Notes under the pieces: model-generated
Told to the model about the DNA's origin: nothing
What the model saw: only the letters and a program-made list of their open reading frames with translations
The model's database searches: none
Made by a program: the position numbers and the translations under genes
Shown here: piece after piece, positions 5,462-6,346 of the stretch
How the letters are laid out: each line of letters starts with the position of its first letter
Numbering within the stretch: the first letter of the stretch is position 1
Assembly: GCF_056746865.1 (NCBI RefSeq)
Contig: NZ_CM163382.1
Strand: one strand, 5' to 3'
Length of the DNA stretch: 64,000 nucleotides

Positions 5462-6346
5462 TTATTCCTCCCTCCAGCGGTATCCATACACCTGTTTCAC
5501 CCAGCGACCGCGACCGTCGCCATGACCCAGATCCGTCGCCGTCAGCGCCAGGGATTCCTTTTCGCTGAATCCCTGCGCCAGATAATGGCGGATCGCATCC
5601 TGCGCCCAGGCATAGCGCAGGGAGTGAGGGGAAAATTCCCCCTTCAGCCCCACCTTAATGACCTGTTTGTGCCAGCTCTCCAGCGCCATTTTGAGATCAG
5701 GCTTGTCGATCAGCCTGCCATTGTGTCGATCCGCGACCAGTAAGGCCTTTTCCAGAGCCTTCCTGACTGCGCCAGTATCCAGAACTGTCGTATGGCGGGG
5801 ACGCCCACCTTTGGTGCCAAACACCACTTTCAGCCGGTTTTCCCCGCGCTCAATGGCTTTCAGCCACGTTTTCAGCGACAGTGAACTCTGTACCGCTTCC
5901 TGCGAGCGTAACCCCATCAGTCGCGCGATCTCCAGCGCCGCAGCCAGCCCCGCATCCTCAGCGCGGGCTTTCTCCATAACCTGCTGGTAATGTTCCGGCG
6001 TAATGGCGCGGCGCGTACCGTTGCGTGAAGCGCCCGACACTCCCAGCGCCTTATTGGTTAGGCGTGGATGCTCCACCACCTGCCTGCGTCCAGCCTGTCT
6101 CAGCACGGCCTGCAGTGCCGCCATGTCGTTTTGCAGCGTTCGTAAACCAATATCCTGCTCCAGCCGTTCCTCAATGTAGCATTCGATATGGCGAACCCTG
6201 ATCTGCTCCACCCGCTGGATCTGGATATTCAGCGCCCGTAAATGTTCACTGAACCGTTTTGTAATATGGATACGGTCATTCACTGTTTTAAAGCTGCCGC
6301 CCGCTTTCTTCGCCAGCGCCTTCATTTCACTGCTTAATTTACTCAT
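5462..6346 (-). CDS. tyrosine recombinase (phage-integrase family)
   Basis: 294-aa ORF; GLRSQE, HSLRY and LGHGDGRGRWVKQVYGY fit the R-H-R-Y catalytic pattern. Confidence 0.6.
   Translation of the reverse strand: MSKLSSEMKALAKKAGGSFKTVNDRIHITKRFSEHLRALNIQIQRVEQIRVRHIECYIEERLEQDIGLRTLQNDMAALQAVLRQAGRRQVVEHPRLTNKALGVSGASRNGTRRAITPEHYQQVMEKARAEDAGLAAALEIARLMGLRSQEAVQSSLSLKTWLKAIERGENRLKVVFGTKGGRPRHTTVLDTGAVRKALEKALLVADRHNGRLIDKPDLKMALESWHKQVIKVGLKGEFSPHSLRYAWAQDAIRHYLAQGFSEKESLALTATDLGHGDGRGRWVKQVYGYRWREE

Follow-up and report, generated by a model that had tools for sequence, protein, structure and literature searches.

The PF12835 gene and its protein

An integrase-like gene located beside the tRNA-Asn gene asnT was analysed in a 64,000-nucleotide stretch of contig NZ_CM163382.1 (RefSeq assembly GCF_056746865.1), referred to here as the window. 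The window is part of an Escherichia coli chromosome with the order yodB, serU, mtfA, asnT, ..., shiA, amn, three further tRNA-Asn genes, cob, his and the O-antigen genes, and is 99.96–100% identical to strain F11 except for an additional IS2 in the window. The gene lies in an insert of 4.1 kb bounded by asnT and the yeeJ start codon (6843), and converges on a P4-type tyrosine integrase gene interrupted by an amber codon, as had been noticed in an earlier reading of the DNA without database searches (the sequence-only reading). A structured element, EFASI, and a further conserved block, termed block U, precede the gene on its own strand (Table 1). The 294-aa product is annotated as 'integrase domain-containing protein' only, and the sequence-only reading had regarded it as an orphan resolvase or invertase-like recombinase or as the relic of a different element.

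Profile searches placed the protein in two Pfam families, PF12835 (Integrase_1; 6.7e-60, 201.8 bits, gathering score 23), with 149 of 149 profile positions covered, and PF12834 (Phage_int_SAM_2; 1.5e-39, 134.9 bits, gathering score 22), with 91 of 91 positions covered, in support of the tyrosine-recombinase fold for which such a search had been proposed. Other matches were those to PHROG 1 'integrase' (4.6e-12), to the XerC-like structure 4a8e in a PDB profile search (1.8e-5) and to PF00589, the last below its gathering score (3e-4, 21.1 against 27.1). The sole NCBIfam match was to XerC TIGR02224 (24.3 bits against a cut-off of 335), and no other recombinase model of that collection was matched. 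The protein does not have the P4-type architecture of ~420 aa, as no match to the arm-binding domain PF13356 was found with Pfam; it had rightly been judged too short to carry such a domain.

The catalytic hexad was found to be complete, with R147 in GLRSQE, K179 in GTKGGRPR, H241 and R244 in PHSLRY, H275 in DLGHG and Y287 in QVYGY. Hence, the three motifs from which an R-H-R-Y layout had been read, i.e., GLRSQE, HSLRY and VYGY, do fall on catalytic positions. In a family alignment of 28 members spanning 24–72% identity, the first five residues are invariant and Y287 is conserved in at least 90% of the sequences. The AlphaFold model based on the same alignment (mean predicted local distance difference test score 94.1) shows a predicted two-domain tyrosine-recombinase fold with a core-binding and a catalytic domain, and its best PDB matches in Foldseek were lambda Int, Tn1549 Int, IntI4, XerH and Cre (probability 1.00, template modeling score ~0.55–0.61). 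The ratio of non-synonymous to synonymous substitution rates (dN/dS) against three Escherichia orthologues was 0.11–0.19, indicating a gene under selection rather than a chance open reading frame (ORF). No ORF follows the gene downstream, where only the non-coding spacer is present.

EFASI and the upstream region

Between E. coli and Salmonella, identity exceeds 93% in the ~200 bp that precede the gene and falls to ~74% in the coding sequence. EFASI, found in this region at 95.7 bits (gathering score 51.2) with the full model covered, is the Rfam family RF02957, described there as 'Enterobacteriaceae, Frequently Around STAXI and Integrases' and as located 'upstream of integrase-encoding genes'; its function is listed by Rfam as unknown, and a trans-acting small RNA (sRNA) has been suggested. 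A covariance model of EFASI was built from three copies and searched in 87 sources. It gave 82 matches, 79 of which lie directly upstream of the focal PF12835 gene on the same strand with 55–110 nt between the end of EFASI and the start codon, including those of the Salmonella genomic island SGI-4 and of a Citrobacter replicon resembling an integrative and conjugative element (ICE). The remaining three belong to loci with two gene copies and lie upstream of the second, and the misses were confined to loci without upstream DNA and to distant relatives.

In the 82 homologues, 94.7% of the cells of the EFASI structure were paired and compensatory changes occurred in 28 of 34 pairs, slid controls giving 28–44%; these pairing figures are somewhat inflated, as the alignment was fitted to the model. 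G-U pairs occur on the strand of the gene, which points to folding of the sense strand. The 3' part of EFASI is joined to the 55-nt leader before the start codon by the inverted repeat CTCCGGCGTG/CACGCCGGAG, which is conserved between E. coli and Salmonella.

Block U contains the hairpin GTGTCACT...AGTGACGC (6633–6672) and is 72–86% conserved across genera (blastn). In an alignment of 24 loci, RNAalifold gave a hairpin of 12 bp that covaries close to its loop. The CTGCACCAGA repeats of block U number two or three. Hairpins and repeats of this kind are known from origins of transfer, and block U is a candidate origin of transfer (oriT) or protein-binding region. The upstream region of the window showed no nucleotide similarity to that of SGI-4 by blastn, and the two are linked only at the level of the covariance model. 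Small ORFs opposite EFASI and block U (e.g., 6383–6718 on the plus strand) are probably spurious, the region being constrained as a paired structure.

One decayed island at asnT

In other E. coli, this asnT site is occupied by a complete island of ~13 kb that is bounded by CCAGTCAGAGGAGCCA and contains an allele of the gene with 89% identity. This island begins with attL at the tRNA gene, an intact integrase of 420 aa (bearing PF13356, PF22022 and PF00589), a spacer of ~1 kb, the convergent PF12835 gene and EFASI with its conserved leader, and continues with a Ner-like HTH_35 regulator, an ASH-like regulator, type VI secretion system (T6SS) cargo (TssF, TssG, VgrG and PAAR), attR and a full-length yeeJ. 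The window was compared by blastn with such a complete island in the reference locus L005. Positions 5364–6791 of the window correspond to L005 10985–9555 and positions 6835–6930 to L005 96–1, so that L005 97–9554 (~9.5 kb) has been lost. With it went the regulators and the T6SS cargo as well as attR and ~300 bp of adjoining chromosome; the deletion also removed the yeeJ promoter. A copy of attR is absent from the window, where the CCAGTCAGAGGAGCCA 16-mer is present only within the four tRNA-Asn genes. The integrase gene is labelled 'tyrosine-type recombinase/integrase, internal stop' in RefSeq. Owing to the amber stop and to the loss of the regulators, cargo and attR, the island cannot excise.

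The PF12835 gene and the amber-interrupted integrase are thus two parts of one decayed element. The sequence-only reading saw no recognisable cognate cargo, and there is none beside the gene in the window; however, this is because the deletion removed it, and the cargo exists in the complete asnT islands. The gene does sit in a relic, as had been suspected, but in a relic of the same element as the integrase. The deletion stops just short of block U, so that a module of 1.4 kb (block U, EFASI and the gene) has survived whole. The asnT island of this genome is dead as an integrative element, yet it bears an intact, selected module with a putative function in mobilization.

At the same site in Salmonella, the order is int, two HTH_3 genes, a Ner-like gene, the PF12835 gene (72% identical), and methylase, DUF87 and Kiwa defence cargo. 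The cargo is therefore variable (T6SS in E. coli, Kiwa and methylase in Salmonella) and the module constant. No further candidate transfer gene was found in the complete E. coli and Salmonella islands, which leaves the PF12835 protein as the sole candidate for a transfer function in these small islands. In L005, the Rfam families C4 antisense RNA, c4-a1b1 and isrK matched at 8179–8363 beside the ASH-like regulator; this phage-type immunity or antirepressor module falls in the part deleted from the window.

Distribution of the gene

A scan with one genome per species yielded 331 relatives, and the 78 closest loci (55–88% identity) were analysed for context; these belong to Enterobacterales, including Escherichia, Citrobacter, Klebsiella, Brenneria, Pectobacterium, Dickeya, Serratia, Erwinia, Yersinia and others, and metagenome representatives were left out as their contigs were too short. 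A P4-type integrase was present within 10 kb of the PF12835 gene in 68 of the 78 loci, often in convergent orientation as in the window, and the protein is not an orphan. A Ner-like gene was present in 51 loci, and mating-pore genes were essentially absent from the 78. Among complete E. coli genomes, the element was found in ~395 of 5,426 (~7%).

Several single genomes carry at least five copies of the gene. Citrobacter youngae ATCC 29220 has six separate loci with EFASI and the PF12835 gene (L017, L052, L055, L060, L075 and L087), and Affinibrenneria salicis has five (L022, L033, L036, L037 and L057), with L036 and L037 representing a tandem of two copies 6.6 kb apart. A phage or prophage origin was rejected, as 50,697 phage records gave two weak matches, one of them a misfiled chromosome contig. 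A plasmid resolvase was likewise rejected, with relatives in only 50 of 72,556 plasmid records; the two plasmid records inspected closely are excised ICEs (pSGI4 and the Citrobacter ICE-like replicon) and not multimer-resolution loci.

Similarity to relaxase-type proteins

The 294-aa protein shares 49.1% identity, across 98% of its length (E 4e-79), with WP_033567157.1 of SGI-4, which is one of the four extra seeds of MOB_M, a group of tyrosine-recombinase-like relaxases (10.64898/2026.01.13.699239). According to that preprint, MOB_M relaxases are chromosomal, represent the commonest chromosomal relaxase type in its species set and are usually mis-annotated as integrases; 96% of the members lie near an integrase, and they occur in ICEs of mating-pair-formation type G (MPF_G) or in relaxase-only integrative and mobilizable elements (IMEs) (10.64898/2026.01.13.699239). 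Homology to a seed and an integrase pseudogene at a distance of 1.3 kb were both found in the window. The family PF12835 is more specific than a general integrase family, and serves as the 'INT_DTR_like' relaxase signature, of the type of MpsA from the Salmonella genomic island SGI1, in the classifier of the Burrus laboratory (PMC10484663).

MpsA itself was recovered from OX345320.1 by means of a published knockout primer, and its N-terminus MRSERTNPD agrees with primer S020Ndefor. It matched PF12835 at 4e-11 and showed 28% identity to the 294-aa protein over 194 aa (BLASTP E 1e-6; hhalign probability 94.7%), the alignment running through the N-terminal domain and halfway into the catalytic domain. 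MpsA is reported in Kiss 2019 as essential for SGI1 transfer, and the TraI of the helper as boosting this transfer without being essential. In SGI1, the order of oriT, the essential sgm-sRNA and mpsA, all on one strand, has been defined experimentally (PMC9299015). The related plasmid protein MobK nicks DNA via its catalytic tyrosine (PMC8152469).

The SGI-4 protein shares with that of the window the PF12834–PF12835 architecture and an EFASI ~110 nt upstream on the same strand. However, SGI-4 is an 80-kb self-transmissible MPF_G ICE of Salmonella 4,[5],12:i:- ST34 with STAXI copies and a TraI-domain protein, whereas what is left in the window is ~4 kb of a 13-kb IME that has neither STAXI nor pore genes. 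MpsA (S020) is similar in its PF12835 domain, in belonging to an IME with its own integrase and in the non-coding oriT and essential RNA directly upstream. It differs in a 26-aa insertion before LGHG and in its requirement for a separate MpsB, whereas the 294-aa protein brings a core-binding-type domain of its own and is not accompanied by an MpsB gene; SGI1 also differs in its insertion site, trmE, and in its IncA/C helpers. MobK (pIGRK) and TcpM (pCW3), tyrosine-recombinase-like relaxases studied biochemically and compared here by description only, share the superfamily and the proposed chemistry, in which the catalytic tyrosine nicks an oriT upstream of the gene (PMC8152469), but are plasmid-borne and reportedly lack a core-binding domain. 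The classical tyrosine recombinases XerC/D, XerH, Cre, the lambda Int core, IntI, FimB/E and Rci have the same two-domain fold and R-K-H-R-H-Y active site; the 294-aa protein differs in that it falls below the PF00589 and XerC cut-offs and carries the signature GTKGGRPR and DLGHGDGRGRY.

Proposed role in mobilization

The best explanation, held with moderate confidence, is that the gene encodes the mobilization enzyme of the decayed asnT IME. The enzyme would belong to the PF12835/MOB_M group, and EFASI and block U would be the partners that it acts with in cis or as RNA. The core of the element would then consist of the P4-type integrase for excision and integration, the PF12835 protein, block U and EFASI upstream, and the Ner-like and ASH-like regulators. 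By analogy with MpsA of SGI1, MobK of pIGRK and TcpM of pCW3, the PF12835 protein would, after excision, nick one strand via Y287 at an oriT in its own upstream region. A conjugative element resident in the same cell would then take over the nicked strand through its coupling protein and mating pore. The helper could plausibly be an ICE of the SPI-7/SGI-4 type bearing a homologous EFASI–PF12835 module. EFASI may act as an RNA cofactor or leader, like the sgm-sRNA between oriT and mpsA, or may form part of a single-stranded DNA recognition site. A relaxase of a minimal IME would explain the constant company of a P4-type integrase, the sharing of the module among islands with unrelated cargo (T6SS effectors, Kiwa) and its spread in Enterobacterales. 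Such a probable relaxase is easily misread as a spare recombinase under the present annotation.

Several observations weigh against this assignment. With respect to homology, the MOB_M status of the SGI-4 protein is itself bioinformatic, and for the clade of this protein (members at least 45% identical) it is by analogy that a relaxase activity, an oriT position and a helper are proposed. The identity to MpsA is only 28% and limited to the first two thirds of the protein. No MpsB-like partner gene was found downstream, and the protein itself does not resemble MpsB. The SGI1 locus (L008) was matched neither by the EFASI covariance model nor by Rfam; the SGI1 arrangement is analogous, not homologous, to that of EFASI and the PF12835 gene. 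The protein also retains everything that a true recombinase requires, the core-binding domain included.

With respect to SGI-4, that island has a further gene, for a TraI-domain protein, which adjoins those for a UvrD helicase and a terminal integrase (L095 11118–13778, pSGI4; PMC6543542). This protein could be the real relaxase there, so that SGI-4 has two relaxase candidates. Hence, the PF12835 protein is not the sole relaxase candidate of SGI-4, which in this respect resembles SGI1 with its helper TraI. The upstream region of SGI-4 shares only STAXI, and neither EFASI nor block U, with the relaxase-less O157 TAI island, which has been called an oriT-only hitcher (10.64898/2026.01.13.699239). 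In the TAI (ter-ure) island of E. coli O157:H7, STAXI was found at 134 bits (L093 6990–7141), alone and without EFASI or a PF12835 gene. A covariance-model search found STAXI neither in the window nor in the full-length IME; since the shared part is STAXI, which the IME type lacks, the comparison does not locate the oriT of the IME type. The 'oriT regions' of the preprint are, by definition, the intergenic DNA upstream of relaxases and hence not independent evidence (10.64898/2026.01.13.699239). Finally, no sigma-70-like promoter was predicted upstream of the PF12835 gene in the window, up to the hairpin at 6801–6815.

The strict linkage of EFASI to the PF12835 gene, with its parallel to the sRNA of SGI1, is what is new here, and opens the function of an orphan RNA family to testing. 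The Rfam description differs in that the downstream 'integrase' is here specifically a PF12835 relaxase-like gene at a fixed distance of 55–110 nt. A role in conjugative mobilization would thus be a concrete one to test for a family of unknown function. A wider proposal, again by analogy, is offered tentatively and as rather unlikely to hold in full: the 'integrases' following EFASI could be MOB_M-type relaxase genes, EFASI and block U the RNA and/or oriT part of a three-part module, and the copy in this genome an intact oriT fixed in the chromosome. If so, the entry of a compatible conjugative element could lead to Hfr-like transfer of the neighbouring chromosome, including his, gnd and the O-antigen region ~40–55 kb away. 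The surviving module may be heading for decay or, less likely, may represent a latent chromosomal origin of transfer.

Alternative explanations

The protein could instead be a genuine site-specific recombinase (an invertase, a resolvase or a second integrase) that flips or resolves a segment of the island at repeats flanking the gene. The full two-domain architecture with the catalytic hexad is in agreement with such a role, as are the perfect inverted repeats found around the gene by repeat search, one of 12 nt (4934–4945/6676–6687) and one of 14 nt (4894–4907/6391–6404). The CTGCACCAGA motif has 17 matches in the window against 3.8 expected, ten of them between 4426 and 6713, and inverted copies on either side of the gene are conserved in many loci. 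Together, 63 loci hold 61 sense copies of CTGCACCAG between −500 and −300 relative to the gene start and 47 antisense copies between +800 and +1700; chance alone would give ~4.6 per strand in 1.2 Mb. These inverted copies are explicable as a recombinase substrate, which is a further point against a relaxase. The orientation of the module relative to int is also opposite in the two island architectures.

An inversion was searched for with synthetic junction queries for both perfect repeat pairs against the 5,426 complete E. coli genomes. No inverted junction was found for either pair in any of the ~395 element-bearing genomes, although a rare or induced inversion could escape assemblies. The orientation of the gene relative to the adjacent Ner-like gene was constant in the loci having a Ner-like gene upstream, and an invertase or DNA switch was rejected as the main explanation. 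The score far below the XerC cut-off, with no other NCBIfam recombinase model matched, and the fact that the nearest characterised homologues are transfer proteins also speak against a recombinase, which is regarded as unlikely. The CTGCACCAG repeats are more likely to be protein-binding sites. The inverted repeats that the sequence-only reading had suggested as substrates thus exist around the gene, but their inversion products were not found in these genomes; an action on them as invertase or resolvase was not borne out. The comparison did not place the protein among recombinases of the Xer, FimB/FimE or shufflon type either, as the XerC cut-off was missed by a wide gap and only one orientation was seen. 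What that reading observed is confirmed, and its interpretation is partly supported.

A second alternative is that the protein is an establishment factor, expressed from the single strand soon after its entry into the recipient, which recircularises or resolves the island after a TraI-type relaxase of the helper has nicked it, with EFASI and STAXI as single-strand promoter-like or regulatory structures. This explanation would account for the position of the SGI-4 gene among ArdC, methylase and leading-region-type genes with STAXI on both sides, and for the TraI-domain protein that SGI-4 has of its own; Rfam associates STAXI with ssb, topoisomerase and anti-restriction genes, and the helper relaxase is reported to boost SGI1 transfer (Kiss 2019). 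However, the IME-type islands have neither STAXI nor another relaxase gene, MpsA is described in Kiss 2019 as essential in the donor for SGI1 mobilization, and expression in recipients is a supposition; an establishment role is accordingly held to be improbable. That the gene is a leftover of a different mobile element, lying by chance beside the broken integrase, would suit the convergent orientation with 1.3 kb of non-coding DNA between the genes and a window devoid of cargo and attR, but is very unlikely and was rejected, since the same pair recurs in the same convergent geometry at the asnT of other Escherichia as well as in dozens of genera, a single attL/attR pair encloses both genes in complete copies, and no internal att site was found between them in the complete islands.

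Other features of the locus

The coordinates of the features described are collected in Table 1.

Table 1. Features of the asnT island remnant and its borders in the window.
Feature	Position	Strand	Details
tRNA-Asn gene asnT	2645–2720	+	Predicted by ARAGORN
attL core of the island	2705–2720		16-bp asnT 3' end CCAGTCAGAGGAGCCA; the same 16-mer is attR in complete islands (L005 402–417)
P4-type tyrosine integrase pseudogene	2883–4151	+	Amber TAG at 3417–3419; split ORFs 2790–3419 and 3513–4151
Non-coding spacer between the convergent integrase and PF12835 genes	4152–5461		Repeat search
CTGCACCAGA motif copies, antisense to the PF12835 gene	4426–4435, 4935–4944	+	
PF12835/PF12834 protein gene	5462–6346	-	Starts with ATG; 294 aa without internal stop; tyrosine-recombinase fold; putative relaxase of MOB_M type (MpsA-like)
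10-bp inverted repeat	6374–6423	-	CTCCGGCGTG (6414–6423) and CACGCCGGAG (6374–6383); DNA fold
EFASI structured element (Rfam RF02957)	6401–6530	-	Strand of the gene; ends 55 nt before the ATG; cmscan
Block U	6633–6767	-	Hairpin, two sense CTGCACCAGA repeats, GC-rich imperfect inverted repeat
CTGCACCAGA motif copies, sense	6677–6686, 6704–6713	-	Within block U
Deletion junction	6792–6834		Island DNA stops, fused ~8 bp before the yeeJ start codon; blastn

The spacer is 78–81% identical to that of L005, compared with 88–91% for the adjoining genes (blastn). The repeat search revealed two related palindromic units of 50–85 bp in the spacer (4309–4394 and 4575–4626), for which Rfam gave matches at chance level only. 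A 15-bp hairpin at 4335–4368 is terminator-like on the minus strand. Another terminator-like hairpin (6801–6815, minus strand) lies directly upstream of block U in the orientation of the gene.

The four tRNA-Asn genes of the window (at 2645, 18124, 19948 and 22357) share an identical 23-bp 3' end representing the att core. In this strain, asnT is the only one of them to be occupied, and the high-pathogenicity island and the pks island are absent. Beyond the junction, yeeJ (6843–10775), encoding an inverse autotransporter adhesin, has kept its start codon and lost its native upstream region through the island deletion; it is a pseudogene in the window, with a further internal deletion of ~3.1 kb after 6926 relative to strain D2. 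The IS2 copy absent from strain F11 is located at 11202–12522, between the yeeJ remnant and a family-9 glycosyltransferase gene, with orfA (12066–12476) and orfB (11203–12108) both on the minus strand.

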